Assembly (NCBI RefSeq): GCF_964204645.1
Contig: NC_134028.1
Coordinates: forward strand, 10,540,001 to 10,604,000
Direction of reading: 5' to 3'
Origin: Tubulanus polymorphus
Lineage: Eukaryota; Animalia; Nemertea
DNA: 64,000 nucleotides
Below, piece by piece: positions 35,214 through 63,654 of this stretch (position 1 is the first letter of the stretch; the number at the start of each line of letters is the position of its first letter). The notes beneath the pieces are model-generated. The model saw only the letters and a list, made by a program, of their open reading frames with translations. It did no database searches and had not been told where the DNA came from. A program made the translations under genes and the position numbers.

Positions 35214-35458
35214 CTTAAAATATTTATATACATGAATAAAATATATATGAATAACATATAAATTGATAGATTATTCAATATAAAAGTGTGAGTAAAGTGT
35301 GAGCTCTTATAGAATAGATATATAGATATATTTTAAACATTATTTCAATATTTATATTTGTATGAGTTAGATTTTTAAACATTAAAAGTGTTAGTAAAGT
35401 GTGATTGAAATAATTCATATATATATACATGAATAACATATAAATGAATAAAATATAA

Positions 35459-38416
35459 ATGAATAAAATGTGTCAAATCAATTTTAAAAAAAAATTTAGT
35501 ATTAAAATGGAAGCAAATAAGTACTTTTTAGATTTTTATAGATTTCTAGCAAGTTCATTAGATAATTTATCTAAAAGTTTAGTTGATAATGATTTTGTTA
35601 TAACTCGATATTATTATCCAAATGAACAAGATTTTAAATTATTGAGATATAAAGGCGCAATTCCTTATTCATTTTATAAAACACACAATGATTTTAATGT
35701 AACAGAATTATTAAAAGATCAATTTTATGATCAATTAAAAGAGGAGTATGTGAAAGATGAAGTGTTTAATAGAACATTAAATATTTGGAACCATTTTAAG
35801 ATGAAAAATCATGGTGAATTAGTAGATTTATATTTAAATTGAGATGTTATGATATTGGCTGACATATTTGAAAAATTTAGAGAAGTTAATTTGAATCATT
35901 TTAATGTTGATCCTTGTTATTGCTACTCTAGTCCTGGTTTAACCTGGCAATGTGGTTTAAAATACACAAATGTAGAATTAGATTTATTAAAAGAACCAGA
36001 CATGGTTTTATTATTTGAAAAATCAATTAGAGGTGGAATTAGTGGTGTTATGGGAGATAGATATTTTAAAGCAAATGATGAATATAAATTATTATATATT
36101 GACGCCAATAATTTATATGGTTGGGCAATGATGCAACCTCAACCATATAAAAATTTTATACTAACAGAAGTTGAAAATGATGATAAAACTGATTGGGAAA
36201 GCGCAATTGCGAGTTAAAAAGATGAAGCACCAATTGGTTATTTCTTTGTAGTTGATTTAGAATATCCTGAAAATATAAAGTTTAAAACAAGAAACTTACC
36301 TTATTGCCCAGAACATTTAACTGTAGATGATAGTTATTTAAGTGAATACCAGAAGAAAATAAAACCGAAAGATCATGTTTTTACAGAAAAATTAATACTT
36401 ACTCAAAATAATAAATACAATTATATCGTTCATTATAGAATGTTAAAATTTTATCTAAAACAAGGAATGAAATTAAAGAAAGTACATAGATATATTGAAT
36501 TTAATCAATCGAAGTGGTTAGAAAAATATATAGATTTCAATACTCAACAGATAACCATATCAAAAACAGATTTTGAAAAAGATTTCTTCAAATTAATGAA
36601 CAATAGTTTTTATGGTAAAACATGCGAAAATATTAGAAATAGAAATGATATTGAATTAGTAAATAATTCTGAAAGATTAAGACATTTACAATCAAGTCCT
36701 AGACATTTAGGAAATAAAAGATTTGAAGATTATTTAACAGCAGTTTAATTAAAAAGAACGTCAATGAAATTTAATAAACCTATATTCATTGGTTCAACTG
36801 ATTTAGAAGTATCAAAATTATTAATGTATGATTTTTATTATAATGTTTTACAACCACTTTTTGGGGAAAAGCATATTAAAATATTATATTTTGATTCTGT
36901 AACAGCTGACACCCCAATATTATTAAAATGTAATGATAAAATATTAATTAGAAGAATTTCAGAAATAATTCCAAAACAAAATGAATGTTATATTTCATAT
37001 GGTGAAAAAGAATTAATACAAATAAATGGATTAATGGATGTTTGGACAAGAAATGGATGGAAAAAATTAAAGAATATTATTAGACATAAAACAAATAAGA
37101 AAATCTATAGAGTTAGAACTAAATTAGGATTTGTAGATGTTACAGAAGATCATAGTTTAATTAAACGAAATGGCGATGAAATAAAACCAACTGATATAAA
37201 AATTGGAGATGAATTATTACATAAAAGATTTTTCCAAAGAATGAATCATATGTCATTTGATGAAATTATTGATAATATTTATAATATAGAACCTGAAACA
37301 TTTGAAGAAAAAGAATATTTTATCAAAGGATTTTTCATGGGTGATGGTTCAGCAGGTGTGTATAATTATGTTTGGGGTAATAAATATTGTTGGTATTTAT
37401 GCAATCAAGACTTAAAATTATTAGAAAGAATTAAGAAATTCTGTGAAGAAGTTTATCCAAATAAAACATTTAAAATCATGGATGTTATGAAATCATCAGC
37501 AGTTTATAGAATACTTGTAAATAATCCTAAAGATTTTGCTATAAAATATAATGATGAATTCTATATTCATGCAATAGTGAAAAGTAATACTTCAACAAAA
37601 GAAAAGATAGTACCAGATTATGTATTAAATGCAAAAAATAATTTAAGAAAGTGGTTCTTCATTGGATTCTATGCCGCAGATGGCATTAAAAAATTTACAA
37701 AGGATAAAAAGATAACCTTTGCACAGAAAGGAAAAGTTGCTATATCAGGATTAAATATATTATGCAGTTCACTAGGATTTAATATGAATATAGAATTAAT
37801 TAAATCTAAACCAGATTGTTTTAATTTAAGGCATGTAGAAAAAGAATTAACAGAAGAAGTTAAAGATTTATTTGAAATATATAACCCATCAGATTATGTT
37901 TATGATTTATCAACTGAAGATGGTACATATAACTGTGGATTTCCATTAATTGCAAAAAATACTGATGCGTACATACTAAAAATCAAGACAAATGACATAA
38001 CAAAAGACTTGAAAACATTAAAACATCATTTTGATTTTTGCAATTATCCCAAAGATCATGAACTATTTAGCAATGATAATAAAAAGATTCCTGGTAAGTT
38101 TAAAGATGAATTAGGGGGTGATGAAATGATTGAATTTGTTGGGATAAGAAGTAAAATGTATAGTTACAGAACAAAAGATCATGAAGCTAAAAAGTTAAAA
38201 GGAATAACAAAACATGTGGTTGATAAACATATAGATTTTCAAGATTATATAAAGTGTTTATATAACTCAATTGTAATGAAACACAAAATGAATTGTTTAA
38301 GATCAGAAGATCACGAGATGTACATTAATGAAGTTGAAAAAACTAGTTTGAATCCATTTGATGATAAAAGGCATATTTTAGATGATGGTATAAGAACATT
38401 ACCTTATGGCCATTAA
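35459..38416 (+). pseudogene. Protein-primed family B DNA polymerase (N-terminal half missing; in-frame stops at ~35842, 36217, 36748), intein-containing
   Basis: YLN*DVMILADIFEKFR, SIRGG, YIDANNLYGWAM, KLMNNSFYGK, YFD-[intein]-TD, GKFKDE, RSKMY, KKLKGI, FDDKR. Confidence 0.95.
36896..37960 (+). mobile_element. Intein (355 aa) with LAGLIDADG homing endonuclease in the pPolB YxD/TD motif
   Basis: Starts SVTADTP right after YFD; block B VTEDHSL; LAGLIDADG motifs KGFFMGDGS and IGFYAADG; block F YVYDLSTE; ends AKN followed by +1 Thr; removal restores YFDTD. Confidence 0.95.
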
Positions 38417-39198
38417 AACAGAAAATCAATATCATCATACTCGAAATCACTATTGGCTTCTTCATTTTCATTTAATTGTTCTTGTATAATTTGTTTAGGT
38501 TCTTCCATTTCATTTTTCTCATTTAAATAAAGTTCGATCTTGTACCACATTTCATCTCGCTCTCTTTGTTTCTTTTTGTATGTTAATTCGTCAAATGGAA
38601 TTATAATATCGATGTTCATATAATTTACAATCTTATTTAAAAAGAATTCATAATTAATTGAATCTGTTATTCTATTTTCCAAATGATACATTAATATTTG
38701 TTTGAATATTTTTTTTATATTTTCCATATCTTCTTCTGTTAATTTAGGTTTTTCATAATAATCGTTAAATAATAAATATAAATACATTTTCTTTTGTTTT
38801 GTGTTAAATGTTGATGGAATAATTGTTTTTATAATATCTTTTTTAGTTATTTCACCATTTTTATTTTCTTTTATTTTCATTTTTTCAAGCCATTGCACAT
38901 ATTCTGGTGTATGATCTTCTATAGAAAATATTTTAAAAATTTCATCTAGATATTTTAATTTTGGTTCTATGAGAAAATCTCTAGTTTTTTCATCACCCCA
39001 TAAATTCTTTTGCCATCCACATTCATTACAAAATAACACAGTACCTTCTTGTCTTAAGGTCGCATATCTACATTGTGGGCATTTTCGTTTATAATTTAAA
39101 CAAGCTCTTTTATAAAAAAGCTCTTGGTATTTTCTTACGTTTTCTTTATGTTTTATTGTTCTATTATGTAGATTTGAATTACTTGTTGTAATAATCAA
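38413..39198 (-). CDS. Zn-ribbon protein resembling poxvirus A2/NCLDV late transcription factor VLTF3 (frame extends upstream to ~39300)
   Basis: CPQC-x13-CNECG, then PKLTEEDMENIKKIFKQI, INYEFFLNKI, RERDEMWYKI, matching my recollection of the VLTF3 C-terminal pattern. Confidence 0.55.
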   Translation of the reverse strand: MIITTSNSNLHNRTIKHKENVRKYQELFYKRACLNYKRKCPQCRYATLRQEGTVLFCNECGWQKNLWGDEKTRDFLIEPKLKYLDEIFKIFSIEDHTPEYVQWLEKMKIKENKNGEITKKDIIKTIIPSTFNTKQKKMYLYLLFNDYYEKPKLTEEDMENIKKIFKQILMYHLENRITDSINYEFFLNKIVNYMNIDIIIPFDELTYKKKQRERDEMWYKIELYLNEKNEMEEPKQIIQEQLNENEEANSDFEYDDIDFLF

Positions 39199-39324
39199 TT
39201 TACAATATTTACAATAATATGTTTTTCTTGTTAATTCATTATATTGTTTTTCTAACTTTTGAACTGTTTCTTTATTATCTGGTAACGTTTTCTCATATTT
39301 TATTTTTTCTAATAAACTATTTTT

Positions 39325-39741
39325 TCATTCATTGAATTCTACTTCAAATTCATTAGAAATTTTATCTATATGTACTTTACGAAATTGATGATTCTCCCAA
39401 TCTTCTATATTTTCAGGGCTATATTTTATTTGACAAGGCTCGCAGAAATGATCTTTTATATTATCCTTGTCATAGAATAAGAAAGGTCTTTTCCAAATAA
39501 TTTCAGGTTCAATTTCAGCAGAATTACTATTACTTTCATTACTATCAACATTAGCCGTTGTGCCATTAATTTTACACTTCTCTGAAAGTTTTTTAACATA
39601 ATTTCTTGAGAATAATTTATTACATTTTGGGCAGTTTATTTTAGGGGGTTTATAATTTTCATCATGTTTTTTCATATGTCGAGCCATATTACTTTTTCTG
39701 AGAAGTTCACCACAAATTTCACATGCTATCTTCTCATCCAT
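39325..39741 (-). CDS. C2H2-type zinc-finger protein
   Basis: CEICGELLRKSNMARHMKKH, CPKC, CEPC...H...H. Confidence 0.75.
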   Translation of the reverse strand: MDEKIACEICGELLRKSNMARHMKKHDENYKPPKINCPKCNKLFSRNYVKKLSEKCKINGTTANVDSNESNSNSAEIEPEIIWKRPFLFYDKDNIKDHFCEPCQIKYSPENIEDWENHQFRKVHIDKISNEFEVEFNE

Positions 39742-39809
39742 TTATTTAGGAAAAATTTTATTAAGATTAATTTTTAGTGATGAGCGGTAATTTTTTTATG
39801 TTATAAATA

Positions 39810-40568
39810 ATGGTAGAATTAAAAGAATACAGAATATTTGTTGATTCTAGAAAACTTACAAATTATAAATCACATAATTTATTAGTACAATTAGATAGAG
39901 AATTTAAGAATTGTGTAGATTTAAAATTAGTAAATATAAGTTTATGTAATTCTTTTTATAATGTATCGGATAAAAGTCTAGAACATTTAATTTTTTCAAT
40001 CTTTTACAAAAAAAGGAATAAATGGTTTTTTATATATTTAAAACCAGGATTATATAATTTAGATAAATTAGCACAAGAAATTAATAGAAAAGCTCGAGCT
40101 AAATTAGGAAGTGATTCCGGATTTAGTATTAGAATTTTAAAAAGTGATAGTTCTAATAAAATAAAGATTAGGTTAGCTAATGACGAACAATTTAAATTTA
40201 CAGTAAGAAAACCTTTAGGTAAACTGTTAGGAATAAACCCAGATATTGTTACAGCATACGCAGAAGGTAGATCAAATTTAATACCTTACACACATTTTTA
40301 TATTTATTGCAATTTAATTAATCCTACAAAAACATTTGAAGCAACTAAAGATACAATTTGTAATTCTAGTATATTAAATATTTTACCATTAAAAAATGTT
40401 AAACAATTTGGAACGCAAATAAATTATAATTTAGCTGAATGTGATTTTAAACCTTGTATTCCACATTTCAATAATTTTAAATTAGAAATAAGAAATCATA
40501 ATGGTTATTTAATTGATTTGAATAACTTTCCTGTAATATATGAATTAGTTATAAGATGTAAAGAGTAA
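39810..40568 (+). CDS. Minor capsid (penton-like, single jelly-roll) protein
   Basis: FVDSR, NSFYNV, PGLYN...LAQEIN, FYIYCNLI, ILNILP, LEIRNHNGYLIDLNN pattern typical of Polinton/virophage mCP; genomic context. Confidence 0.72.
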   Translation: MVELKEYRIFVDSRKLTNYKSHNLLVQLDREFKNCVDLKLVNISLCNSFYNVSDKSLEHLIFSIFYKKRNKWFFIYLKPGLYNLDKLAQEINRKARAKLGSDSGFSIRILKSDSSNKIKIRLANDEQFKFTVRKPLGKLLGINPDIVTAYAEGRSNLIPYTHFYIYCNLINPTKTFEATKDTICNSSILNILPLKNVKQFGTQINYNLAECDFKPCIPHFNNFKLEIRNHNGYLIDLNNFPVIYELVIRCKE

Positions 40569-40584
40569 TTTTTTCATTATATAA

Positions 40585-41165
40585 ATGAATATAACTGTTT
40601 GACCGAGTATATGTTTTGGATTTGATTTTAAACGTGAGAAAGAAATGAAATTTGATATTAATGATGTAATAACACATATTTAAAATATTGCATTTTCTAA
40701 TGAAACAACATTTGAATATGAAACAACAATAAATAAAGAAACTTTAAATGTAGAAAAGATTACTAATTTAATTAGAGAATCTTTAAGATTTTATGAATTA
40801 GATGAAGATTTTATCATAGATGATATTAAAAACATATTAACCAAAATATATGATAATCATAAAAGTAGTAATGAAATAAATGTTGAAATAATTATAAATA
40901 AGATAACTAAATATTTTGAAGATAGTAATTTTTTTGATTAATTAATGAGTGGTAATAAGTGGATAATAACTGGATTATATAATGGAGCATTACTATCAGT
41001 TGGAACTGTTGGTTATTCAATGGTATTAAAAAAGTATTCAAAATGGAAAGTGTTAATGTTGATAGATTTGATATAAATGACATCTTAAAATTAACATTAG
41101 CAGTTACTTTATCTAATTTAACTATTGATTATTTGGAAAAACAAAAATATATTCCTCCCATATAA
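40585..41165 (+). pseudogene. Two small viral ORFs (broken homologues of 56502-56735 and 56801-57022)
   Basis: Nucleotide similarity to copy 2, with stops and frameshifts. Confidence 0.65.
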
Positions 41166-41189
41166 ATACATAATTATTTTACTAAATAA

Positions 41190-41614
41190 ATGGCTTCTGC
41201 AGTTATAACTATTATAGGATCGGCAATTGTTAACGCTTTAGCTTTACTGGAGGGGGTTATTTATTTAAACATATTGATAAAAATGGATAATTAACAGAAC
41301 AAAAAAGACATAACTTAGCATTAGAGAAATACACTAAAACAGCAGAAGAATATAGAGAAAAGAGACAAAACTATATGGATTATATTAACAAGGAATTATA
41401 TGATCAGAAGATTTCACATAGAGATTTTCAATCAGTTGATGATGCAATGAGTTTATATAACGCGGTAACCAATAAAGAAAAATTACATCTACATAAACCT
41501 ACAATATCAGATTATTTTACCCCGAGTAATGAACAGAAGAAATATGAAATAATATGGATTTTAGGTGGAACTGTTATTGTTATATTTGTTGCTTATAAGT
41601 TTACTAATTTGTAA
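41190..41614 (+). pseudogene. Conserved small membrane-associated viral protein (frameshifted homologue of 57046-57468)
   Basis: MASAVITIIGSAIVNALAFTG start, C-terminal TM; 1 nt deletion near 41250. Confidence 0.75.
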
Positions 41615-41631
41615 TTTTTTTTGCTAAACAA

Positions 41632-42237
41632 ATGGATGATAAAGATAATATTGATATTATTCCTCATGATATAAATAAAACTAAATTAAAAATATATTTA
41701 GAAAAACAAATATTAGAATTTGAAAGTGACTTAAAAGTTAAAAAGAAAAAATATTTAAAATCTAAAATTATATATTATTTGATTATAAGTGGTTCGGTTA
41801 CAATTAGTTCTGTAATAACATTTCTAGCAATATTTTCACCATTAACACCTTTAGCTATATCAATTGGTGTATTAGGATTAAGTTCAAGTGTTTTAACTGG
41901 TATAAGTTCAAAATTAAATATAAAAAGTAATAAAGAAAAAATTAAAACTAATATAAAAGAAATTAATAAATTGAAGAATACACTAGATTATATAATAAGT
42001 TTAAATGGCCATATAACAGTTGAAGAACAAGATAAATTATTAAAATTAATATTAGATGAATTAGAATGTCCTTTACCAGGTTCAAAATATTTTAAAGAAT
42101 TGAATAATAATATTAATTTTTCTAAGTTTTATAAAATATGTAATGAATTTAATATTAATTCAAATAAAGATTTTAGAGCAAAAATTGGAACAATGGGTGG
42201 ATTAGGAATATTATATACTAAAGAATTTGGAAAATAA
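41632..42237 (+). CDS. Two-TM viral protein fused in frame, by deletion, to the middle of the next gene
   Basis: Matches 57487-57906 up to QDKLLK, then jumps at ~42045 to sequence matching ~58316 onward. Confidence 0.7.
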   Translation: MDDKDNIDIIPHDINKTKLKIYLEKQILEFESDLKVKKKKYLKSKIIYYLIISGSVTISSVITFLAIFSPLTPLAISIGVLGLSSSVLTGISSKLNIKSNKEKIKTNIKEINKLKNTLDYIISLNGHITVEEQDKLLKLILDELECPLPGSKYFKELNNNINFSKFYKICNEFNINSNKDFRAKIGTMGGLGILYTKEFGK

Positions 42238-42978
42238 TGAAATTCAGATATAAGAACATTAAATTGGAATGAATTACCAAAATATTATAATAATATACAA
42301 CAACAAAATAATAATGGTTGGGTTTATTTCATTTTAGAAAATAGTGAAGGTTTTACTAAAGCTGGTATACAAAGAATAAATCAATCAATTAGAACTTATT
42401 TGATATGTATTTTAGGTGCGCAAGTTGAAACAAGATCGCCAATAGTTGGAAATGATAACACTTCATTCGATGCGCAGAAACAATTCAAAGTATTATTTGA
42501 AGATTCCATTCATAATGATAAAAATAGATCGATTCCAGAAAACATTGTAAGATATCAAAATTCTTTAGATAAATAACATATTAGACTAAATTATTGTATA
42601 GGCCATAATCTATTAATTATTTCTAATGATTTAGTATTAAAGATGGGAAATATAATTGGTTACAATAATCTAATTAAAACTGCAACAATAAATAATTCAT
42701 TTGGATTAAATGATATAAATAAAAAGATTATTACTGCTCCAAAATTAATGGAAGGTGAAAAAAATAAAAAACATATTCAATCAACAGAAACTAAAACTAA
42801 GAATATTAAATTAAATAATGATTCTAAAATAAAAGATTATAATACATCAGAAAATATTAAAACTGATAATATTCAACATGATATAATTAAAACTGATAAT
42901 GATAATAAATCCCATGAAAATAGTAAAATTAGCTATAACTTGTATAGGAATTGTTATAGGAGGAATATTATATTTTAA
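42046..42978 (+). pseudogene. Remnant of conserved Polinton-like protein (homologue of 57938-59325)
   Basis: GFTKAGIQRINQSIRTYLICILGAQVETRSPI block with stops. Confidence 0.75.
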
Positions 42979-43001: not shown

Positions 43002-44438
43002 ATGGATGTAGAAGGTGGAGAACATATTGGAATGGATAATTTTGATGAACCTGGCATAACTGATGAACAACAACCTGATTTTAGTGAAACAAGTTTTAAT
43101 GGCGGTAATGAGCCAGAATATAATAATAATTTAAATATGCCTGATTATATTAAAAATGCAGAATCACAATTAAATCCTGAAAATCTAGACCCAGATTTAG
43201 TAAAACAAGATTTAGATAATTTAAACAAAATACCTAAATTAGAACGTATAATTGAAAATTCTAAACTTAACATAAATGATGAAGACGTTGGACCTTTAGC
43301 AGATCAATTAAAATTTTTAGATAATGGTAAATGGTATTATCATTTGAAAGGTGATTATTATATTGATATCACTTATAAAAATAATTAAAATAAAATATTA
43401 ACATAATCAACTTTGAGTGATTTAGATCCAGATAGAATTAAAAGAATTAGTAATGGTAATGTAATAACTGATGTTATAAAACAAGAATTAACTGATAATG
43501 ATATAGACGTATTTAAACAAAGAATTAATGAATTATTTGAAATAATCAAAAAGAAATCAGAAACAGAAACAACTTCTGAACAGAATATAACTTCCAAAAC
43601 TAGTAAACTTAAATCAAATAAAGTTCCAATTGAAAAACTTTTACAGAATGGATTAATTGATGCAACAGATCAAGAAATTAAAAGTATAAGACTTGCATCT
43701 GATAAAATTGCGCATGATAAAAGTATAAGAGATTTTAAAATTAGAACTTTAGAAAAAGAATTAACTGATAAAAATAAAGAAATAGAAAAATTAAAGTCTG
43801 ATTTAGATCAACAAGTAATTGATGAAATAGAATATAGGCAAAAAGAATTACGATTAGAAAAAGAAATTAATAATTTAAAAGATAATTTAGAAATACAGAA
43901 AGAAGAAATTAAATTATTATTAAAATCATATGATTATAATATTAATAGATTAAAAGTTATTTTTAAAGATTTGTTGATTAAACCAAATTCTGAAATATCA
44001 TTGAAAGATAGAATAAAGTTATTATTTAAATTAGAAGGAATAACGATTCTTTCAATTCTAACAGCTGTAACTATGTTATTTACAACAATTGGTTTAGCTA
44101 TATCAAATGCTTTAAAATCTACTCCTACTCCCAATAAACCAGATAAACACCCGAATGATAATAATTCTATACAAGATAAAGTTAAAGATGGTTTAAAGAA
44201 ATTAGCAAAATATTTATGGGAATTATCTAAAAAATCTGCTGCAGCTTTACCAGGAATTATTGCATCAATTGTTGGTTTTATATTGAAATCTGCTGGGAAT
44301 ATTCTTAACTTTCCCGCTGAACATATTATTCTATTTTTAATTACAGTTGTAAGTGCTATTATTTTTGGGTTAGTGAATATGATATCAAAAAGATATCAAG
44401 AAAAAATAATAAAAATAAATAATTATTTTTTTTGTTAA
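43002..44438 (+). pseudogene. Coiled-coil protein with C-terminal hydrophobic/amphipathic helices (stops near 43388-43410)
   Basis: Acidic N-terminus, heptad K/E/L region, EGITILSILTAV, AAALPGIIASIVGFIL; paralogue at 59327-60744. Confidence 0.75.
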
Positions 44439-44442: not shown

Positions 44443-45703
44443 ATGAGTGGGAGTTATATAAGTCCTTCTAAGATTTCTAGAATATCTAATGCTATTAAAG
44501 CAGAAAGATCACATCATATAATTACTCATAACCCTTCTAATATTAATCCCGATGAAACTTTATATGTTAGAATTCCTAGATTAACACAAAATACTTTTTA
44601 TGTTCCAAATAGTACTTTTTATGCTCCAAATAGTATTTATTTATCAGCTGATATAAAAGTAACTGGTCATGATAATAATTATGTTGTCGATAATGTTGGG
44701 AGATATTTGATTAAAAAATTAACTATAAAGATTGGTCCAGAAACAGTTTTTTCATTAGATGATTATAATTTATTTATGCATTATAAAGATTTATGGTTAA
44801 CTAAAGAAAATAGAAATAATATGATATTTCAAGACATTCAATCGGAAAACCATAATAAATTAAGATTAGGAGATAATGACGCAATAGTAACTCGTGCCGC
44901 AGATAATTTGATTAAAAAGGTTTATGGAAGCAAATATAAAATTCCATTAGACTTTGAATTGATAAATAATAATGCACCTTTATATAAATACGTAATTCAA
45001 GAAGATATTATATTTGAGATAACACTTGCTCCTGTAAATGGAATTGTATTATCTAGCGTTGTTAAAGATATGGGATATAAATTATCGAATATATGCTTAG
45101 AATATGACACAGTAACCAATGAAAATATTGCTAGCACAATTCAAACTCAATACAATCAAGGATTTTCATTATTATATGATTATATTGATAAATTTAAAAC
45201 TGTAACTATTAATGCAAATGATGAAATAATTAATGAGAATATTAACTTCCCAAGAAGATCTATTAAAGGTATATTAATATTTTTTACCATTGCAACATAT
45301 TCTAATGGTGTAATAAAGGTAGATAATTATTATAATCCTGAAATTACAAAAGTAGAAATAACTATCGAAGGAATAGCAAATAAAATATTTTGTCAAGGAA
45401 TGAGAATGATGGCCAGAAATTAGAAAAAATTTTATGAATGAAAAGGTAAAATCATCTGAAAATTGTAATATTAATCAAATTGATTATTATACCAGCAATA
45501 AATATGCATTATGGTTAGATTTTAGAACAACAGAGGATAATTCATTACATGGTTCTGGAAAAAAACTACAGTACACTAAAGATGGAATACAATTATTCAT
45601 GAAAAAGAAAAAAGGAAGCTTAAATTTTAAAATGCACATTTATATTATATCTGACGCACAATTAAATATTGTAAATTCACAATTAGATAGTATTCAATAT
45701 TAG
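44443..45703 (+). pseudogene. Major capsid protein (double jelly-roll type), frameshifted near 45410
   Basis: ~420 codons, beta-rich, HNPSNINPDETLYVRIP, IPLDFE, ICLEYD, YALWLDFRT, SDAQLNI; located next to integrase and ATPase; 21 nt internal duplication at ~44590-44633. Confidence 0.75.
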
Positions 45704-45733: not shown

Positions 45734-46850
45734 ATGGGTGGTAAAAAACTCCTAATACTAAAGAACAATATTTAAGAAATTTATATTACAACCCTGAGAG
45801 TTCGGTTGCTTATTCTTCTACCAAAAATATATGGCGTCAAGTAAAACAAGATAAATTAGATAAGATAATCCCACAAAATTTAGTTAAATATAAAGATATA
45901 AATGAATTTATGTTAGAACAACCAACATATACAACACATAAAAAAATTGTTAGAAAATATAAAACTCGTAAAACTATGGTAAGTTATGTAGATCAACAGT
46001 GGCAAGGAGATTTAATTGATATGAAAAATGTTAAGAAAGATAATGATGATTATTGGTGGATATTGAATATAATTGATATTTTTAGTCGTTATGTACGGAG
46101 TTTCCCACTTTATAGAAAAGATGCTGTACAAACATCAAATGTTTTAAGAAAATTTCTTTCGGATGACCAGAAAAAATACAATTTGTTGATGGAAAAGAGT
46201 TTGATAATTCACTTGTTCATGAACTCTTAGACAATCATAATATTAAATATTTTTCAACAAAATCGGATAAAAAAGCAGCAGTTGTTGAACGATTTAATAG
46301 AACATTAAGAACAAGAATGTGGAAATATTTTACAGCAAATAATACTTTTAAATGGATTGATGTTTTACCAAAATTGATAGAAGGATATAATAATTCTTAT
46401 CATTCTTCTATTGGAATGAAACCTATTGATGCTAAAAAACCTGAAAATGCTAAAATTGTTTGGAATAATTTATATGGAGCATTTCTTGTAGATGATTTTG
46501 GTGAACCTAAATTTAAAGTTGGTCAAAATGTTAGAATTTCTAAGTATAAAAAGATATTTGATAAAGGATACGATCGAAATTTTACTAGAGAAATATATAA
46601 AATAAAAAAGGTTATAACAACAAAACCATATGTCTATAAATTAGGAGATTTAGATGGTGAAGAAGTTGATGGCTACTTTTACGAAGAAGAATTAAGTTTA
46701 ACTACTGAAAATCTAGAACAAGAATATAAAATTGAAAACGTATTAAAAACAAAAACTATTAAAAGAAAAAACTATTCTTTAGTAAAATGGGTTGGATGGC
46801 CATATAAATTCAATGAATGGATATTATCAAGTAAAATTAAAAATATATAA
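45734..46850 (+). pseudogene. Retroviral-like (rve) integrase with C-terminal chromodomain, frameshifted
   Basis: LYYNP, WQGDLIDM, IDIFSRY, VDGKEF, KAAVVERFNRTL, YNNSYHSSIGMKP, FKVGQNVRIS, GYFYEEEL, LVKWVGWP..FNEWI. Confidence 0.93.
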
Positions 46851-47456
46851 ATGAATTAGGAATTATTTATATTTGAGCCTCATAATATGTTAATTTCTGG
46901 TGTAACATATTGTGAAAAAACTTATTTTATATTAAATTTATTAGAAACTGTTTAAAAAAACTATTTTGATAATATAGTATTATTTTGTCCAACATATGAA
47001 TTTAATCAAACTTATGATAGAAATATTACTAGAAATAATAAATTTATTTATATTAGATCATAAAACAGTTAAAGAAAATTTAGATAATTGTATTAAAATA
47101 GCAATTGATATTTATAAAGGATCAAATACATTATTCATTATAGATGATTGTGCTAATCTACATGATTCAAAAGTTAGAGTGAGTTATGCTATTTAGCTTT
47201 TTCTGGCAGACATTTTGGGATAACAACATGGGTTTTAAATCAAAAATATAATTCAATTGTTAAAGACTTTAAGGAGAATATAAGATTTTTAGTTTTATTC
47301 TACAATAAAGATAGAAAATCGATGAAAAATGCACTTGAGGAAAATGATATTATTCCACATGATTTACATAATGAATATATGGATAAGTTGAAAAATATTA
47401 AAAGATCAAAATAACTATTTAGATTACAACACCCATTTAAATATGAATTTATTTAA
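46851..47456 (+). pseudogene. A32/FtsK-like genome packaging ATPase
   Basis: Degenerate Walker A (MLISGVTYC.KT), Walker B LFIIDDCA, SGRH motif; several stops and frameshifts. Confidence 0.85.
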
Positions 47457-47457
47457 A

Positions 47458-47725: not shown

Positions 47726-47753
47726 CAACACAACTAATTTATTTGTTATATAA

Positions 47754-48200: not shown

Positions 48201-48203
48201 TAA

Positions 48204-54070: not shown

Positions 54071-55373
54071 ATGAAAATGATTTTTCAGATGAACCACCAA
54101 AAACAAATACAATTAAAAAGTTTCATCAATCAGCTGCAGCTTTCGGATTATATATTAAATCTGATTATCCAGAACTAATTGAAAGTGAATATTATCATTA
54201 TAGAAATGAAAATGTTATCAATCATTTTTGTGACTTATTAATTGAATATGAAATAAGATTTAGTAAATCATTGAATACAAATAATGAAATTATAATGACA
54301 GAAGATAAAGAAGCATTTGAGTTTACAGATAAATGTTATTATTGTGAAAAGATATTTAATTATAAAGATAAAAAAGTAAGAAACCATGATCATTTGAACG
54401 GAAAGTTTAGAGGCGCTGCGCATGAGAATTGTAACTTACAAGCTAAGAAAATTAACTTTGTACCAGTTATATTTCATAATCTATCAGGATATGATGCACA
54501 TTTATTTATCAAACAGTTATGTCATAAAATAGAAGAAATTAATAATGAAATAGAAAGATTAAATTCAAATAGATCAAAAGATAAAATACCAACTTATAAA
54601 TTTAAAATGTTAGCTAAAACATCTGAGAATTATATATCATTCCAATTTGGGTGTTTAAGATTTATAGATTCATATAGATTTTTAAACAGCTCATTAGATA
54701 ATTTATTAAAAAGTTTAATCGATGATGAATTAAAGATATTAAAACAACACTACCCAAATAATGATGATTTCCAATTAATGAGATATAAAGGCGCAATTCC
54801 ATATTCATTTTATAAATCACATAATGATTTTAACATAAAAACTAATAACATAACTGATGATTTAAAAATATTAAAACATCATTTTGATTTTAGTAACTAT
54901 CCTAAAAATCATGAATTGTTTAGTAATGATAATAAAAAGCGACCCGGGAAGTTTAAGGATGAATTAGGTGGCGAAGAAATGATTGAATTCATTGGTATTA
55001 GATCTAAAATGTATTCATATAAAACTGAAGAACATGAAGCAAAAAAGTTAAAAGGAATTACTAAAAGTGTAGTAGAAAAGAATATTCATTTCAAAGATTA
55101 TATCAATTGTATATTCAATGAAGAAGTTAGAAAACATAAGATGAGATGTTTAAGATCAGAAGATCACGAAATGTTTATTGAAGAAATTGAAAAGATTAGT
55201 CTAAACCCATTTGATGATAAAAGATATATTTTAGATGATGGAATTCATACAGTTGCTTATGGTTGTAATTTAGATGAATATCTAAAATTTAAAAGAGAAG
55301 AAACAAAAGAGAACGAGATAATAAACAGGATTCTAACGTGTTAATCAAATTTTAATAAAAACATGTTATTAAA

Positions 55374-55727
55374 ATGGAGAGTAAACAAGCACACAGTGAG
55401 AACAACAAATTATTTCTAGATAGAATAAAAGATACTTCAAATGTCAAATCAGTAGATTATAAATTTAAGAAGTTAAAAGAATTAATAATCCATAAGAAAT
55501 ATCTAATTACAAATATTGATACAGTTACTAACAAATATGGAGATAAATTACTTATACACTTAGAATATGAAGGATTAAAAGGAAATATATATAAATTCAG
55601 AACATATTTACCGGATAGATTTCATAGATTATCAAGTGAAGATTTAGAAGAATTATGTTCCGGTGATTTCTATTTCGTATACAAAGGTAAGAATGAAAAA
55701 GGGCACCATGAAATAGATTTCGAATAA
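55374..55727 (+). CDS. Small viral protein, paralogue of 49584-49910 (possible OB-fold)
   Basis: Intact 117 aa ORF directly downstream of pPolB. Confidence 0.6.
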   Translation: MESKQAHSENNKLFLDRIKDTSNVKSVDYKFKKLKELIIHKKYLITNIDTVTNKYGDKLLIHLEYEGLKGNIYKFRTYLPDRFHRLSSEDLEELCSGDFYFVYKGKNEKGHHEIDFE

Positions 55728-55741
55728 AATGTGTAAAATAA

Positions 55742-56450
55742 ATGGCGGAATTAAAAGAATACAGAATATTTGTTGATTCAAGAAAACTTACAAATTATAA
55801 ATCACATAATTTATTAGTTCAATTAGATAGAGAATATAAAAATTTGCGTAGATTTAAAATTAGTTAATATAAGTTTATGTAATTCTTTTTACAATATATC
55901 GAATAAAACTATTGAACATAATACTTTTTTAATTCATATTAGAAATGTAAATAAATGGTTTCATCTAATTTTAAAACCAGGATTATATAACTTAGAAACA
56001 TTATCTCAAGAAATTAATCGAAGAGCACGGTTGAAAATTAGAAAAGATGATAAATTTTTAATTAGATTTATAAAAAGTGATAGCACAAATAAAATTAAAA
56101 TAAAGGTATTTGATGAAAGTCAACATGCATTTATAGTAAAAAAACCATTAGCTAAATTGCTAGGAATTGCACCAGATGTTGTTACAGTAAACGTAGAAGG
56201 CATTTCAAATATAATACCTTTTACACACTTTTATATTTATTGCAATTTAATTGATCCTACAAAAACATTTGAAGCAACTAAAGATACAACATGTAATTCT
56301 AGTATATTAAATATTTTACCATTGAAGAATGTTAAACAATTTGGAGCGCAAATAAATTATAATTTAGCCGAATGTGATTTTAAACCTTGTATTCCTCAAT
56401 TTAACAATTTTAAATTAGAAATCACAATGGATACTTAATTGATTTGAATA
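55742..56450 (+). pseudogene. Minor capsid protein, copy 2 (frameshift near 55840, 3' deletion)
   Basis: Homologous to 39810-40568. Confidence 0.75.
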
Positions 56451-56501
56451 ACTGTTGGACCGAGCATATGTTTTGGATTTGATTTTAAACGTGAGAAGGA
56501 A

Positions 56502-56735
56502 ATGAAATTTAACATTACTGATGTAATTACACATATCAAAAATATTGTATTTTCTAATGAAACAACATTTGAGTATGAAAAAAAAACAATAGATAAAGAA
56601 ACGTTAAATGTAGAAAAGATTACTAATTTAATTAGAGAATCTTTAAGATTTTATGAATTAGATGAAGATTTTATCATCGATGATATTAAAAAAATAATAT
56701 TGAAATATATACAAATGAAACTAGTAATGAAATAA
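56502..56735 (+). CDS. Hypothetical viral protein
   Basis: Conserved with ~40646-40940. Confidence 0.55.
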   Translation: MKFNITDVITHIKNIVFSNETTFEYEKKTIDKETLNVEKITNLIRESLRFYELDEDFIIDDIKKIILKYIQMKLVMK

Positions 56736-56800
56736 ATGTTGAATTAATCATCACTGAGATAACTAAATATTTTGAAGATAGTAATTTTTTTGATAAATAA

Positions 56801-57022
56801 ATGAGTGATAATAAGTGGATAATAACTGGATTATATAATGGGGCATTACTATCAGTTGGACCTGTTGGTTATTCAATGTTATTAAAAAAAGTATTTAAAA
56901 TGGGAAGTGTTAATGTTGATAGATTTGATATAAATGATATTTTAAAATTAACGTTAGCAGTTACTTCATCTAATTTAACTATTGATTATTTAGAAAAACA
57001 AAAATATATTCCTCCTATATAA
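56801..57022 (+). CDS. Small hydrophobic viral protein
   Basis: 73 aa, TAAATG start, conserved with 40945-41165. Confidence 0.7.
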   Translation: MSDNKWIITGLYNGALLSVGPVGYSMLLKKVFKMGSVNVDRFDINDILKLTLAVTSSNLTIDYLEKQKYIPPI

Positions 57023-57045
57023 ATACATATTTTTTTGCTAAATAA

Positions 57046-57468
57046 ATGGCATCTGCAATTATAACTATTATAGGATCGGCAATTGTTAACGCTTTAGCAT
57101 TTACTGGTGGTGGTTATTTATTTAAGCATATTGATAAAAATAGTTCATTAGGAGATCAAAGAAGACATAACTTAGCGTTAGAAAAATATAATAAAGCTGC
57201 AGAAGAATACAGAGAAAAGAGACAAAACTATATGGATTATATCAACAAGGAATTATATGATCAGAAAATTTCACACAGAGATTTTCAATCAGTTGATGAT
57301 GCAATGAGTTCATATAACGCAGTAACCAATAAAGAAAAATTACATCTACATAAACCTACAATATCAGATTATTATACCCCAAGTAATGAACAGAAGAAAT
57401 ATGAAATAATTTGGATTTTAGGGGGAACAGTTATTGTTATATTTGTTGCTTATAAATTTACTAATTAG
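57046..57468 (+). CDS. Conserved small membrane-associated viral protein
   Basis: 140 aa; hydrophobic Gly/Ala N-terminus, RHNLALE coiled segment, C-terminal TM. Confidence 0.78.
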   Translation: MASAIITIIGSAIVNALAFTGGGYLFKHIDKNSSLGDQRRHNLALEKYNKAAEEYREKRQNYMDYINKELYDQKISHRDFQSVDDAMSSYNAVTNKEKLHLHKPTISDYYTPSNEQKKYEIIWILGGTVIVIFVAYKFTN

Positions 57469-57486
57469 TAATTTTTTGCTAAATAA

Positions 57487-57906
57487 ATGGATGATAAAGT
57501 TGATGGTGTTAATATTATTCCTCATGATATAAATAAAACTAAATAAAAAATATATTTAGAAAAACAAATATTAGAATTTGAAAGTAACTTAAAGATAAAA
57601 AAGAAAAAATATTTAAAAAGTAAAATTATATGTTATTTTATTATTAGTGGTTCGGTTACAATTAGTTCTGTAATAACATTTCTAGCAATATTCAGTCCAT
57701 TAACACCTTAAGCTATATCAATTGGTGTATTAGGATTATCATCAAGTGTTTTAACTGGTATAAGTTCAAAATTAAATATAAAAAGTAATAAAGAAAAAAT
57801 TAAAACTAATATAAAAGAAATTAATAAATTAAAGAATACACTAGATTATATAACAAGTTTAAATGGCCATATAACAGTTGAAGAACAAGATAAATTATTA
57901 AAATAA
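57487..57906 (+). pseudogene. Two-TM viral protein (internal stops)
   Basis: Homologous to 41632-42045. Confidence 0.7.
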
Positions 57907-57937
57907 TTAATAAATTATTAATTTTTTAATTATATAA

Positions 57938-59325
57938 ATGGCAGTTAGTTTTCTAAAAGCTTTCCAATATAATAAATCAATTAAATATAATATTCCAGCA
58001 ATAAATTTTAATACAGCATATAGAAATGAAGTTTTAGATTCATTAACTAATTTAGAAATTTATGTTACTGAAACTAATAGTTTAATGCAAAGATGGAAAA
58101 TATATTTCATGTATATTTAATTAATTTTAAAAAATTGAAAGATGAAAAACAATGTTTATTAAAATCTAATATGAAGTATTGGCAGAATCCATTAAATTTT
58201 GCTGTTTATTGTGCAACAACAGGATGTGGAATTAGTTGGAATGATCATTTCAATAATTCTAAATATAAATTAATTCAAAGTTTAATTAGATTTCATACAT
58301 ACTTTCAAATCAGAATAATATTAAATGAATTAGAGTGTGCTTTACCAGGATCTAGGTATTTTAAAGAATTAGATAATAATATTAATTTATCAAAGTTTTA
58401 TAAAACTTGTAATGAATTTAATATAGATATAAATAATTCTGATTTTAGAACAAAAATTGGAACAATAAGATCACTTCCTTGTCCTGAAAATATTTTACAA
58501 TATTGTACACTTCCCATACCATCTAATAGTTTTTATAATATCTATAATAATAAATTAGTTTATGGTAAAAAAGAAACTATGGATTTAGAAACATTAAATC
58601 TCAATAAATTGCCGAAATTTTATGATAATTTAAAACAAGAAAACAATAATGGTTGGGTTTATTTTATTTTAGAAAATAGTGAAGGTTTTACTAAAGCTGG
58701 TATACAAAGAATAAATCAATCTATTAGAACTTATTTGATATGTATTTTAGGCGCGCAAGTTGAAACAAGATCCCCAATAATTGGAAATTTTAATACATCA
58801 TTTGATACACAGAAACAATTCAAAGTATTATTTGAAGATTCCATTCATAATGATAAAAATAGATCGATTCCAGAAAACATTGTAAGATATCAAAATCATC
58901 TAGATAAATCACATATTAGATCAAATTATTGTATAGGCCCTAATCTATTCATTATTTCTAATGATTAAGTATTAAAGATGGGAAACATAATTGGTTATAA
59001 TAATCTAATTAAAACTGCAACAATAAATAATTCACTTGGATTAAATGATATAAATAAAAAGATTATTACTGCTCCAAAATTAATGGAAGGTGAAAAAAAT
59101 AAAAAACATATTCAATCAACAGAAACTAAAACTAGGAATATTAAATTAAATAATGATTCTAAACCGGATTATAATACATCAGAAAATATAAAAACTGATA
59201 ATATTCAACATGAAATAATTAAACTAAATGATGATAATAAATCCCATGAAAATACTAAATTAGCTTTAACTTGTATAGGAATTGTTATAGGAGGAATATT
59301 ATATTTTAAATTTTTGTATTATATA
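57938..59325 (+). pseudogene. Conserved Polinton-like protein of unknown function with C-terminal TM (frameshifts)
   Basis: WQNPLNFAVYCATTGCGIS, IRFHTYFQIR, GFTKAGIQRINQSIRTY; C-terminal LALTCIGIVIGGILYF. Confidence 0.75.
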
Positions 59326-59326
59326 A

Positions 59327-60744
59327 ATGGAAGTAGAAGGTGGAGATTATGAAATGGGTACCTTTAATGAACCCGGCATAACTGAAGAACAACCGCCTGA
59401 ATTTAATGATACAAGTTTCAGTAACGATAATGAAACAGCATATAATTCTAATTTAACTACACCTGAATATATTGATAAAACACGTTCAAAGATAAATATT
59501 GAAAATGAAGTAACAGAATTAACAAAAAAAGATTTAAAATATAATGAAATTATTTATAAATTCAAACCAATATTAAAAAAATCTGGATTCAATATAACAA
59601 ATAAAGGTGTGAATTATTTAGTAAAAGATTTGAAATATTTAAATTGTGATTATTATTGGCATTTGAAAGATGACTATTATTTTAAGATTTCTTCTAATAA
59701 AAGTCTCGATAAAATAATAACAAGACCAACTTTAATTAAATTAGAACAATCTAGAATTAAGAAAATCATTAATGATGTTATAACTGATGTTACAGAAGAA
59801 GAGATAACTCTAAATAGAAAAGAATTTATTCGAAGAAATGATGATTTTTTGAAAATAATTAATGAAAATTTAGAACCAGAAACAATTCCTAAAGAAGTTA
59901 TTAATTCCAAAACTAGTAAACTTAAATCAACTGAAGTTTAAACTGAAAAACTTTTACAAAATGGGTTACTTGATGCAACAGATCAAGAATTAGAAGATTT
60001 AAATATATTTTTTGATGAAGCAATTAGAGAAATTTTTAGTATACGAAAGGAAGCTGATAACATTTCTGAGATAAAATAAGAACGAGATCAAAAAATTATG
60101 TTTTAGCAGATAAATTAACTGATAACAATAAAGAAATAGAACAATTAAAGTCTGATTTAGATCATCAAGTAATTGATGAAATTGAATATAGGCAAAAAGA
60201 ATTACGTTTAGAAAAAGATGATTTAGAATATAACATAGAATTACAAAAAGAAGAAATTAAATTATTATTAAAATCATATGATTATAATATTAATAGATTA
60301 AAAGTTATTTTCAAAGATTTGTTGATAAAACCAAATTCTAAAATATCATTAAAAGATAGAACAAAATTATTATTTAAATTAGAAGGAATAACAATTCTTT
60401 CAATTCTAACAGCTGTAACTATGGTATTCACAACAATAGGTTTAGCAATATCAAATGCTTTAAAATCTACACCTACTCCAAATAAACCGGATAAACCCCC
60501 GAATGATAATAATTCTATAAAAGATAAAGTTAAGGATGGTTTAAAGAAATTAGCAAAATATTTATGGGAACTATCTAAAAAATTTGCTGCAGCTTTACCA
60601 GGAATTATTGCATCAATTGTTGGTTTTATATTGAAATCTGCTGGGAATATTCTTAACTTTGCTGCTGAACATATTATTTTATTTTTAATTACAGTTGTAA
60701 GTGCTATTATTTTTTGGTTAGTAAACATAATCAAAAATAAATAA
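59327..60744 (+). pseudogene. Coiled-coil/membrane protein, copy 2 (stops and frameshifts)
   Basis: C-terminal part near-identical to 43975-44390. Confidence 0.75.
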
Positions 60745-60764
60745 TTAATTTTTTTGTTAAATAA

Positions 60765-61997
60765 ATGAGTGGGAGTTATATAAGTCCTTCTAAGATTTCT
60801 AGAATATCTAATGCTATTAATGCAGAAAGATCACATCATATAATTACTCATAATCCTTCTAATATTAATCCCGATGAAACTTTATATGTTAGAATCCCTA
60901 GTTTAACACAAAATACTTTTTATGTTCCAAATAGAATTTATTTATCAGCCGATATAAAAGTAACCGGTAATAACAATAATTATGTTGTCGATAATGTTGG
61001 AAGATATTTGATTAAAAAATTAAATATAAAGATTGGCCCAGAAATAGTTTTCTCATTAGATGATTATAATTTATTTATGCATTATAAAGATTTATGGTTA
61101 ACTAAAGAAAATAGAAATAATATGATATTTCAAGGAATCCAATCGGAAAACCAAAATAAATTAAGATCGGGAGCTAATGACGCAATAGTAACTCGCACCG
61201 CAGATAATTTGATAAAAAAGATTTATGGAAGCAAATATAAAATTCCATTAGACTTTGAATTGATAAATAATAATGCACCTTAATATAAATACGCAATTCA
61301 AGAAGATGTTATATTAGAAATAACATTTGCTCTCGAAATGAAATTGTATTATCTAGCGTTGTTAAAGATATGGGTTATAAATTATCGAATATATGTTTAG
61401 AATATGATACAGTAACTGATGAAAATATTGCTAACACAATTCTAACTCAATACAATCATATATGATTATATTGATAAATTTAAAACTGTAACTATTAATG
61501 CAAATGATGAAATAATTAATGAGAATATTAACTTCCCAAGAAGATCTATTAAAGGTATATTGATATTTTTTACCATTGCAACATATTCTAATGGCGCAAT
61601 ACAGGTTGATAAGTATTATAATCCTGAAATAACAAAAGTAGAAATAACTATCGAAGGAATAGCAAATAAAATATTTTGTCAAGGAATGAGAATGATAGAT
61701 CAATGGCCAGAAATTAGAAAACATTTTATGAATGAAAAAGTGAAATCATCTGAAAATTGTAATATTAATCAAATTGATTATTATACCGGTTATAAATATG
61801 CATTATGGTTAGATTTTAGAACAACAGAGGATAATTCATTACATGGTTCTGGAAAAAAACTACAGAACACTAAAGATGGAATACAATTATTCATGACAAA
61901 GAAAAAAGGAAGCTTAAATTTCAAAATGCATATTTATATTATATCTGACGCACAATTAAATATTGTAAATTCTCAATTAAATAGTTTTATGTATTAG
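60765..61997 (+). pseudogene. Major capsid protein, copy 2
   Basis: Highly similar to 44443-45703; stop at 61283 and frameshifts. Confidence 0.75.
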
Positions 61998-62029: not shown

Positions 62030-63087
62030 ATGGAAGGTGGGATATATGAAATACAAACTCCAAGTGAAATGATATCAGATATATATTATATATTACCTTT
62101 TGATGAATACATTAAGTATTTTGGAGATTACTTTATTCAATTCAAATATAGAATAAGTAAAATTTGAATTATGAGAATTATGATAAGATTGAACCTGATA
62201 TCAAAACCAAAAAGACAAATGAAAAATATTGTGATGTATGTAAGAAATATATATCATATAAAAATTGGGCATCACATAAGAAATCAAAGAAACATATAGA
62301 AAAAGAAAAGAATAATAATGATAATAATATATCAGTTAGTAATATAAAAGATAATGTTAATACAACTGAAACAAATGATACCATAGATAATATAACAGAT
62401 AATGTAATAAATAATGTTAACCCAATTGAAACTAATGATAATGATATAAAAGATAATGAAATAATTGATGATTCTAAAAAACATTGTAACATTTGTGATT
62501 TAGATATCTCTAAAAGTAATTTTTCTAAACATAAAAAATCTCAAGCGCATATGGAAAATGAAAGGGTGTTAGAAGAATATGAAAAGAAATTAGAAGAAAT
62601 AGAAAGAAATAAAACGTGTCGATATTGTAATAAGAAAATTGAACCTGTTGATGAAAATACTCATTATAAATCAAAATTAAATCTAATTAATGTTTATAAA
62701 ATGGTGAGTATGATACCATTGTTAAATAACCCAAAGAAATATATCAAATATTTTAATCCTAAAACTAACCAATATTATATATTCTATAAGTAGTTATTTG
62801 ATAAATTATTAGCTTATGCAGAAGATAATCCTGAACAAATATATAAATTATTATATTTTAGAAAAATAGCTTTAAGTTATCTGATAAATAATTTTAGAAA
62901 TCATTTTGATTTTGATTATGATGATTTTGATGAATACTTAGAAAAATTAAGAGAAAAAGCTAATATACCTACTAATTATTATGTTAAGATGGCTCGACTA
63001 AAATTAATAAATATACCTAATACTTTAGATGAATTAGATATAAACAGAGATGATTTTATAAATGTATTAGAAACGAAATTAGAATAA
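62030..63087 (+). pseudogene. Multi-zinc-finger (C2H2/matrin-like) viral protein
   Basis: CDVCKKYISYKNWASHKKSKKH, CNICDLDISKSNFSKHKKSQAH, CRYC...H; frameshift near 62163, stop at 62793. Confidence 0.7.
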
Positions 63088-63195
63088 TTATTATAAAACT
63101 AATTTATATATCTATGTACTAGACGTACGTAAGAATCTTGGTAAGAATCCAAGAATCCAAGAAATCTTACTTTCTTACTCGTACGTCTAGTACAT

Positions 63196-63231
<36 letters not shown>

Positions 63232-63480
63232 GTTTTCATAAAAATTAAAAACATAAAATTATTAATCTAAGTATAGAAATAGTTATAATATAATCTATTT
63301 TTATTTCAAGAGAAAACGTATGATTGATTCATTTTTATATAATTCATTAAATAATTTATATATCTATGTACTAGACGTACGTAATAATCTAAGAATTCTT
63401 ACTTTCTTACTTTCTTAGCAAGAATCTTGGATTCTTACGTACGTCTAGTACATAGATATATAAATTAGTTTCTATAATAA
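63088..63480. repeat. Double hairpin/inverted repeat with (TA)n tract between convergent genes
   Basis: TATATATCTATGTACTAGACGTAC arm occurs forward at ~63106 and ~63357 and reversed at ~63181 and ~63439. Confidence 0.9.
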
Positions 63481-63494
63481 TTCAAATTAGGATT

Positions 63495-63654
63495 TTATTT
63501 TATACATTTATATTCATATGGAAATTGAAGCCTCAGTAATAATTTTGAACCTTTATTATTCTTTAATTCATTCATATATTCATCATGTAACTCAGTAGGT
63601 ATAATTTGATTTTCTTCCAATGATTGTTGCATAGATTTTCTATCTTTGTTATAA
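63495..63654 (-). pseudogene. 3' end of packaging ATPase (copy 2), cut by a Helentron-type insertion
   Basis: FYNKDRKSMQQSLEENQIIP...LLLRLQFPYEY matches FYNKDRKSMKNALEENDIIP at ~47300-47450. Confidence 0.85.

Follow-up and report, generated by a model that had tools for sequence, protein, structure and literature searches.

A Maverick/Polinton provirus of the nemertean Tubulanus polymorphus belongs to a clade with TAAATG motifs at its gene starts: a candidate satellite of a large DNA virus

This study concerns a Maverick/Polinton element integrated in a 64,000-nucleotide stretch of the genome of the nemertean Tubulanus polymorphus (RefSeq assembly GCF_964204645.1, contig NC_134028.1, positions 10,540,001 to 10,604,000 of the forward strand; hereafter the window), and in particular a promoter-like motif at its gene starts which suggests that the element may be transcribed by the polymerase of a helper virus. 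The guanine-plus-cytosine (GC) content of the window falls from about 0.37 to 0.21–0.25 at 35–49 kb and 54–63 kb, and these two tracts repeat each other, with aligned blocks 78–92% identical. They are two decayed copies of one Maverick/Polinton provirus, copy A at about 35.5–48.6 kb and copy B at 54.0–63.7 kb, separated by host repeats, retrotransposon scrap and detached pieces of the element. An intact and largely syntenic metagenome contig of 11.5 kb (L005) and an intact polymerase (P0114) served as guides for reading both copies.

Copy A begins with the gene for a protein-primed family B DNA polymerase (pPolB; 35459..38416, + strand), which lacks its 5' part and has in-frame stops at residues 128, 253 and 430; it is matched by PF03175 over the cut-off (E 2.8e-13) and is 59% identical to residues 727–1689 of P0114. 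Within its motif C lies an intein of 355 aa with a LAGLIDADG homing endonuclease, its frame open (36896..37960, +). Convergent with the polymerase is a gene combining a zinc finger with a VLTF3-like domain (38413..39741, −; VLTF3 domain at about 38416–39090), which has one in-frame stop and a TAAATG start and is identified by ESM features and fold. This is followed by a putative minor capsid gene, so called from size and position alone (39810..40568, +; 43% identical to L005:565–1329, with no Pfam match over the cut-off), and by a block traced by tblastn of the L005 proteins (40585..42978, +), comprising small conserved genes, a SLATT-like gene with two transmembrane segments (weak PF18142) and what is left of a conserved gene of 442 aa; the last two genes of the block are fused by a deletion. 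The 442-aa gene (57938–59352 of the window; L005:2996–4324) is 69–78% identical between the copies and L005, and has no Pfam, NCBIfam or usable ESM match. Downstream, each with a TAAATG start, are a broken gene for a coiled-coil protein with a hydrophobic C-terminus (43002..44438, +; 44% identical to L005:4328–5785), a frameshifted double-jelly-roll major capsid gene (44443..45703, +; identified from the L005 orthologue and the fold of an intact homologue), a frameshifted rve integrase gene with a C-terminal chromodomain (45734..46850, +; rve and chromo matches, over the cut-off in orthologues) and a broken A32-like packaging ATPase gene (46851..47456, +; 65% identical to the L005 ATPase, itself matched by Pox_A32 at E 4.6e-11). 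A weakly structured, repeat-rich non-coding stretch with tandem repeats 3' of the ATPase (47457..47730, z −3.5) precedes two conserved genes without assigned function (47754..48560, +; L005 orthologues), again with TAAATG starts.

Copy B repeats the middle block, with the ATPase inverted as in the relatives L001 and L003. Its pPolB (54025..55344, +; from comparison with P0114 and an EndoVII domain) has an internal deletion that takes out the catalytic middle including the intein site. A broken block running from a small gene to the major capsid gene, mapped by L005 orthologues (55374..61997, +; TAAATG at 7 of 8 mapped starts), leads to a broken zinc-finger gene with a TAAATG start (62030..63087, +; domain scan and start mapping), a long inverted repeat between convergent genes (63096..63471) and the 3' end of the ATPase (63498..63662, −; from the L005 ATPase), which is cut off by a host repeat. 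Between the copies lie a detached small element gene with a TAAATG start (49584..49910, −; 72% identical to L005:125–469) and a scrap of the pPolB 5' part (50491..51310, +; tblastn places P0114 residues 333–468 at 50864–51289).

The element thus has a pPolB, a retroviral-type integrase, a double-jelly-roll capsid and an A32-like ATPase, the four marks of Maverick-Polintons; the AlphaFold model of the intact capsid homologue P0003 (predicted local distance difference test score, pLDDT, 87.8) is a double jelly roll, matching others at E ~1e-15 to 1e-18. It is a Maverick/Polinton by membership, sharing with the Maverick-Polintons (Polintoviricetes) these four genes, the integrase being of the rve type, and multicopy integration, and it is probably closest to their Group 2; one named relative is a bivalve protein, 38% identical. 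Nothing favours membership in the virophages: the Mavirus and Sputnik capsids rank below those of the nucleocytoplasmic large DNA viruses (NCLDVs), all at 8–15% identity. The initial annotation had preferred a provirophage-like element over a conventional Maverick; the gene content is that of a Maverick/Polinton, and it is in lifestyle that the element, from the sequence evidence given below, is likely virophage-like. Both copies are truncated, and no terminal inverted repeat or target-site duplication was found at either. Among the element open reading frames scanned, we found no protease family (in fragmentary copies and incomplete genomes) and no RNA polymerase gene in copy A, copy B or the 11.5-kb relative; there were 0 Rfam matches. 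Group 1 Maverick-Polintons usually have a cysteine protease. The tight, intron-less packing described in the initial annotation holds in the relatives, where the coding fraction is 0.82–0.94; it is ordinary for polintons, and we rejected it as a sign of helper dependence. Raw-read depth is 140–915x over the element against 7–11x in the least-covered host bins (at slightly different likeness thresholds), giving roughly 20–130 copies in the host genome.

With starts mapped from L005 orthologues, TAA directly precedes the ATG at 18 of 22 gene starts in the window, compared with 41 of the 898 remaining ATGs (p 1e-19), and a T-run lies at −14 to −10 in 16–18 of the 22. Region-wide, TAAATG is at chance level (36 versus 30.6±6.0 in copy A, 22 versus 20.7±5.2 in copy B), so that the earlier claim of TAAATG on almost every gene stands for the gene starts, not for the region at large. 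Twenty-six relatives were fetched: the analysis took in 12 close loci, 3 whose capsid genes are fragmentary and 5 distant loci, leaving out L002 (a near-duplicate of L001) and the decayed fragments L022–L026. In the 12 close loci, with genes defined blind to the motif, TAA|ATG is found at 48/54 starts versus 78/1904 other ATGs, with T at −12 in 48 and A at −18 in 42 of the 54 starts, the same peaks as in the window; their GC ranges over 0.20–0.44 and includes loci at 0.40 and 0.44. The five distant loci have it at 0/14 starts. In AT-rich viral contigs chosen through a motif scan, with the seed starts removed, it occurs at 8/103 starts in 16 giant-virus-bin loci and 19/234 in 40 other viral loci (8%). 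AT richness alone thus fails as a cause, since these controls stand at 8%, the distant relatives show none and the motif is kept at 40–44% GC; the motif appears to be specific to a clade rather than an effect of base composition. An enrichment beyond AT richness, which the initial annotation had named as a check, was therefore found, in a control set without a Group 1 Maverick. On a capsid tree of 96 rows, all of them search hits, one branch (Shimodaira–Hasegawa-like approximate likelihood ratio support 94) splits 13 motif-positive from 4 motif-negative rows, and 0/500 shuffles segregated the motif with as low a score. No IMG/VR relative was found with capsid, pPolB or ATPase queries. The prokaryote genome set gave no capsid relative; a single stray fragment of an ATPase on a GC-rich contig (L028) was ignored.

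A published counterpart of this arrangement is that of vaccinia: as PMC11980589 describes them, its late promoters carry TAAATG spanning the start codon, preceded at about 10 nt by a conserved T, and its intermediate promoters carry an AT-rich stretch 15–19 nt upstream; the element shares the TAAAT initiator at the start codon, and its T-tract at −14 to −10 fits the late-promoter spacing. Judged by sequence, most genes of the element therefore stand behind a promoter motif of helper type, as in a satellite. One could instead suppose that TAA before ATG is not a promoter at all but a device of translation or gene packing in an AT-rich compact genome, i.e., an in-frame stop guard or stop-start coupling: TAA is one of the stop codons, neighbouring genes sometimes touch or overlap (gaps 0–20 nt), and the hexamer is at chance region-wide. 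We regard this as very unlikely, given that only TAA is used and never TGA or TAG, that phased A- and T-tracts lie 9–15 nt further upstream, that the motif persists in the GC-richest loci and after gaps of 50–300 nt, and that equally AT-rich viral contigs rarely show it. In the motif-less outgroup (L020, L021, L017, L015), a TATATA-like run often stands just before the ATG, as it does at most genes of the giant-virus-bin locus L027. Different polinton clades might track different promoters, though the outgroup avoids AATAAA.

The sense strands of genes read by nuclear RNA polymerase II (Pol II) are expected to be poor in the poly(A) signal. With expectations from synonymous-codon shuffles, the motif clade has 161 sense-strand AATAAA versus 164.5 expected (59 genes), about one per 280 nt, and the giant-virus bins have 401 versus 365. 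The motif-less outgroup is depleted, with 16 versus 29.2 (16 genes); on its antisense strand there are 17 versus 10.9, and five control hexamers lie at 0.94–1.18 of expectation. The missing avoidance in the motif clade would be an independent line of evidence for a switch of polymerase, though no proof of one. Two further signals were rejected: AATAAA after stop codons fell from 22/55 to 14/55, the chance level, once matches inside the next promoter were removed, and the poxvirus early terminator T5NT is depleted on both strands but likewise in the outgroup.

The VLTF3-like gene has a Pox_VLTF3 score of 0.96 in the ESM features, where 28 of 30 matches carry PF04947; the recognition score was below the threshold, which makes this weak evidence alone. 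The Pfam profile PF04947 itself misses the protein in the window and in 3/3 relatives (0/4 proteins, E up to 1), as does a word-indexed search with the window protein. In Foldseek, its AlphaFold model (pLDDT 73.9) ranks the VLTF3s of cowpox virus (E 2.4e-5) and an entomopoxvirus first, followed by those of many NCLDVs, and named poxvirus VLTF3s make up 3 of the 4 matches with E<0.001; the zinc ribbon and helical domain of the VLTF3 fold are present in the model. Hence the earlier assignment stands by fold and ESM features and falls in the profile search, and the model points to a true but remote VLTF3 homologue. The presence of VLTF3 in a subgroup of polintons is already published (PMC11131425, in a passage citing Krupovic and Koonin 2016). 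It is no proof of a helper, because mriyaviruses, which lack an RNA polymerase and are presumed nuclear, carry VLTF3 as well (PMC11253617).

These facts lend themselves to an account in which the element is an autonomous nuclear virus whose own TFIIB-shaped VLTF3 recruits host Pol II and TATA-binding protein to a short viral promoter, the motif reflecting shared ancestry of factor and site. Consistent with it, the best solved-structure matches of the model are TFIIB chains (Z 6.8, root-mean-square deviation 3.5–4.2 over about 92 residues), a middling score tied with cyclins; polymerase-less mriyaviruses keep VLTF3; and the many host-genome copies need nuclear access. Pol II, however, initiates 25–30 bp from a TATA element, and because the motif directly adjoins the ATG, initiation directed by a TATA element would have no space upstream of the motif. 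The VLTF3 gene itself also has a motif start, so that no early class is evident to begin the cycle, and AATAAA recurs on the sense strand without the avoidance seen in the outgroup. We consider this account rather unlikely.

The polymerase intein reported in the initial annotation is confirmed by its sequence: it starts with Ser, ends with Asn and has Thr at +1, carries both LAGLIDADG motifs, scores above the cut-off of TIGR01445 and lies in motif C. It shares the insertion site, the SVT..TP / N|TD junctions and the LAGLIDADG endonuclease with the Pol-c inteins of giant-virus and archaeal B-family polymerases; unlike these, it sits in a protein-primed polinton polymerase, as one of a clade of 10. 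In a midpoint-rooted, quick-search tree of the window intein and the best 120 of 390 matches, built on 365 columns and with extra flank left on a few rows, one branch (99) sets off the 10 inteins of pPolBs, which lie among inteins of DNA-primed family B polymerases; the DNA-primed polymerases include one in a giant-virus bin (P0140) and one whose best solved relative is Pol delta (P0122). The extein of another carrier, P0117, is unlike that of the window polymerase. In two other clusters (P0115/P0243 and P0251/P0254), polymerases 98–99.5% identical over the N-extein have the intein either present or absent, the P0115 cluster being on long contigs of up to about 1 Mb. Read depth is lower over the window intein (about 175–245 versus 250–355), with no skipping joint among the reads listed. 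The intein-plus and intein-minus alleles of the two clusters suggest active homing inside eukaryotic genomes, and a single entry into polintons from a giant virus, followed by homing from one polinton copy to another up to the present, is the likely history of the intein. PMC11161782 mentions in general terms that homing endonucleases are inserted in pPolBs of polintons; a homing intein spreading among polinton polymerases in eukaryotic genomes would be unusual in its own right. Because it is shared by a clade and present or absent among near-identical polinton copies, we rejected it as evidence of dependence, the role it had at first been given, and read it as a probable record of past contact with giant viruses.

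Such past contact invites the thought that the whole system is a relic, i.e., that the lineage depended on a giant virus only in the past, perhaps while in a protist, with the promoters, VLTF3 and intein kept, and that spread in the animal genome is helper-free transposition. The nesting of the intein clade among those of delta-like polymerases, one in a giant-virus bin, speaks of old contact; both window copies are dead, and the hosts of the metagenomic relatives are not known. The motif is nevertheless retained at 89% of starts across capsids only 52–84% identical, which implies continuing selection over decay and makes a relic distinctly improbable in our estimation.

Hairpins between convergent genes, also noted at the outset, are real at some junctions and missing at others. 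Strong ones (z −8 to −15) occur at 3/8 convergent junctions, namely those of the window at 63088–63497, L001 and L003, in each case at the 3' end of the ATPase gene and unrelated to one another in sequence; the window has one at 1/2 junctions (z −15.5, 42-bp perfect arms). The other five, three of them with overlapping stops, show no excess structure, including the PolB/VLTF3 junction (overlapping stops, z −0.4). Loci with an uninverted ATPase have repeats that fold only weakly at the corresponding position after the gene (z −3.5, −4.4). The hairpin is possibly a terminator, or equally an origin or an inversion scar, and given its patchy occurrence was rejected as evidence of helper dependence.

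Regarding the identity of a helper, a motif scan of IMG/VR (55 loci) pinned down none and returned no contig with near-universal TAAATG starts. Three loci (L045, L057, L065) have a T-run and TAAATAA|ATG at several starts, and L045 encodes MSV199, dUTPase and A22 genes. The extended motif occurs 19 times versus 3 for the reversed control in one bin (G002, L037) and 6 versus 2 in another (G001, L065); the G002 capsid is closest to that of an iridovirus, and its gene start is without the motif. These loci were selected by motif and hence show only that helpers other than poxviruses are possible. The initial annotation had named a giant or pox-like helper: the published motif match is indeed poxviral, but the motif is carried by iridovirus-like contigs too, such that the helper need not be a poxvirus and may as well be iridovirus-like. 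Iridoviruses have a nuclear phase (PMC5294985), and a chromosomal copy would be easier to reach from there. As an observation in its own right, TAAATAA|ATG with a T-run at a subset of giant-virus genes is possibly an undescribed late promoter.

The surroundings of the copies include host repeats. A 190-bp near-perfect palindrome (35025–35213, z −21) adjoins copy A; because reads place it at many other sites, it is likely a host miniature inverted-repeat transposable element rather than an element terminus. A high-copy repeat with 147–155-bp tandem units and a depth of up to about 7000x is found at 6650–7700, 30450–31550, 51800–52620 and 63650–64000, and is the repeat that cuts off copy B. Positions 13000–18700 and 24100–28200 hold a GC-rich retrotransposon with reverse transcriptase/RNase H and recombinase-like frames, and a decayed low-copy DNA-transposon-like gene, which may be DIRS-like and EnSpm-like, respectively. 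Together with the bivalve relative, this transposon landscape points to an animal host.

Several known systems bear comparison. VLTF3-bearing coral polintoviruses are among the nearest; the passages of PMC11131425 and bioRxiv 10.64898/2026.06.19.733378 that describe these and other polintons make no mention of promoter or intein, and the capsid hidden Markov models of a framework preprint may already include the motif clade. Likened to the element by description alone are the entomopoxvirus-associated Polinton-like viruses (PLVs; Barth et al. 2024, PMC11296320): according to parts of that source, they are polinton-like, are proposed to be poxvirus hyperparasites in animals, and one of them sits in a beetle genome; a cysteine protease is among their genes, no rve integrase is described for any of the four, and what ties them to the helper is that both occur together in occlusion bodies, with no promoter, VLTF or intein analysis in those portions of the main text. 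Mavirus and the EMALE virophages, and the PLV PgVV Gezel-14T, are likewise integrated small DNA viruses whose genes bear the promoter motif of the helper (passages of PMC10945749 and bioRxiv 10.1101/2022.07.28.501842), and shared promoters have been read there as helper dependence before, for PgVV and EMALE type 4. These have protist hosts, Imitervirales helpers and other motifs, and their dependence is shown by experiment, whereas here it is argued from sequence. In the yeast pGKL elements, a TAAAN initiator leads to 5' poly(A) leaders by slippage (in part of PMC6211774). Both vaccinia and pGKL encode their own polymerase; the element is without one. A literature search by title or abstract start, which did not extend to supplements, returned no paper that describes TAAATG promoters for Mavericks.

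Taking these lines together, we lean towards the reading that the polinton clade is transcribed, as a satellite, by the polymerase of a helper NCLDV, poxvirus- or iridovirus-like. The helper polymerase would initiate within the AAA of TAAAT and slip there to give the mRNA a 5' poly(A) leader, as is known for vaccinia and the yeast pGKL elements, and this leader would take the place of the unfavourable T at −3 of the ATG; the whole gene set, with VLTF3 and the integrase, would be expressed in the post-replicative phase of the helper; the element's own VLTF3, with its zinc ribbon and cyclin-like helices, might boost or redirect the helper machinery; and the pPolB would copy the genome while the integrase stores copies in host chromosomes. 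Deoxynucleoside kinase genes in two motif-clade relatives (L005:10340–10981 and L007:2895–3377) were counted in favour of this reading. Of the several independent signs of dependence first proposed, the promoter remains and is joined by the lack of AATAAA avoidance, whereas the intein, packing and hairpins dropped out and VLTF3 fits a helper without requiring one.

A number of points weigh against helper transcription. The model rests on sequence, with no transcript, start site or helper observed, and the route of a cytoplasmic polymerase to a chromosomal copy is unexplained. The motif represents one evolutionary event and not 48 independent ones; it is found at only 4/8 starts in the three loci with fragmentary capsid genes, and the pPolB start lies outside what could be inspected. 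Its controls are the outgroup and the AT-rich viral contigs, with no ordinary Group 1 Maverick among them, and the capsid tree is a single quick-search gene tree in which 79/96 rows have no promoter label. The outgroup AATAAA contrast comes from 16 genes in 5 loci (10 versus 18.2 once reduced to 3 non-redundant loci), and the close loci at GC>=0.27 are ambiguous (34 versus 39.9). The VLTF3 fold matches are weak (14–22% identity, root-mean-square deviation 12–14 A) and favour short poxvirus proteins by length; moreover, VLTF3 requires no helper and is compatible with helper and autonomous models alike.

Should helper transcription hold, the Mavirus-type provirophage lifestyle would extend to animals and would point to unknown helper viruses; the model predicts a specific mRNA 5' end. 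The clade-wide helper-type promoter, together with the lost avoidance of the poly(A) signal, would provide a sequence test by which the thousands of genomic Mavericks could be sorted into those transcribed in the nucleus and those transcribed by helpers. More tentatively, and with chances that we place well short of even, this animal-genome Maverick clade could be widespread and consist of germ-line provirophages that in a single step exchanged nuclear Pol II for a pox- or irido-like late polymerase steered by their own VLTF3, in which case their promoter would betray undiscovered large DNA viruses of invertebrates and, possibly, an inherited antiviral defence.

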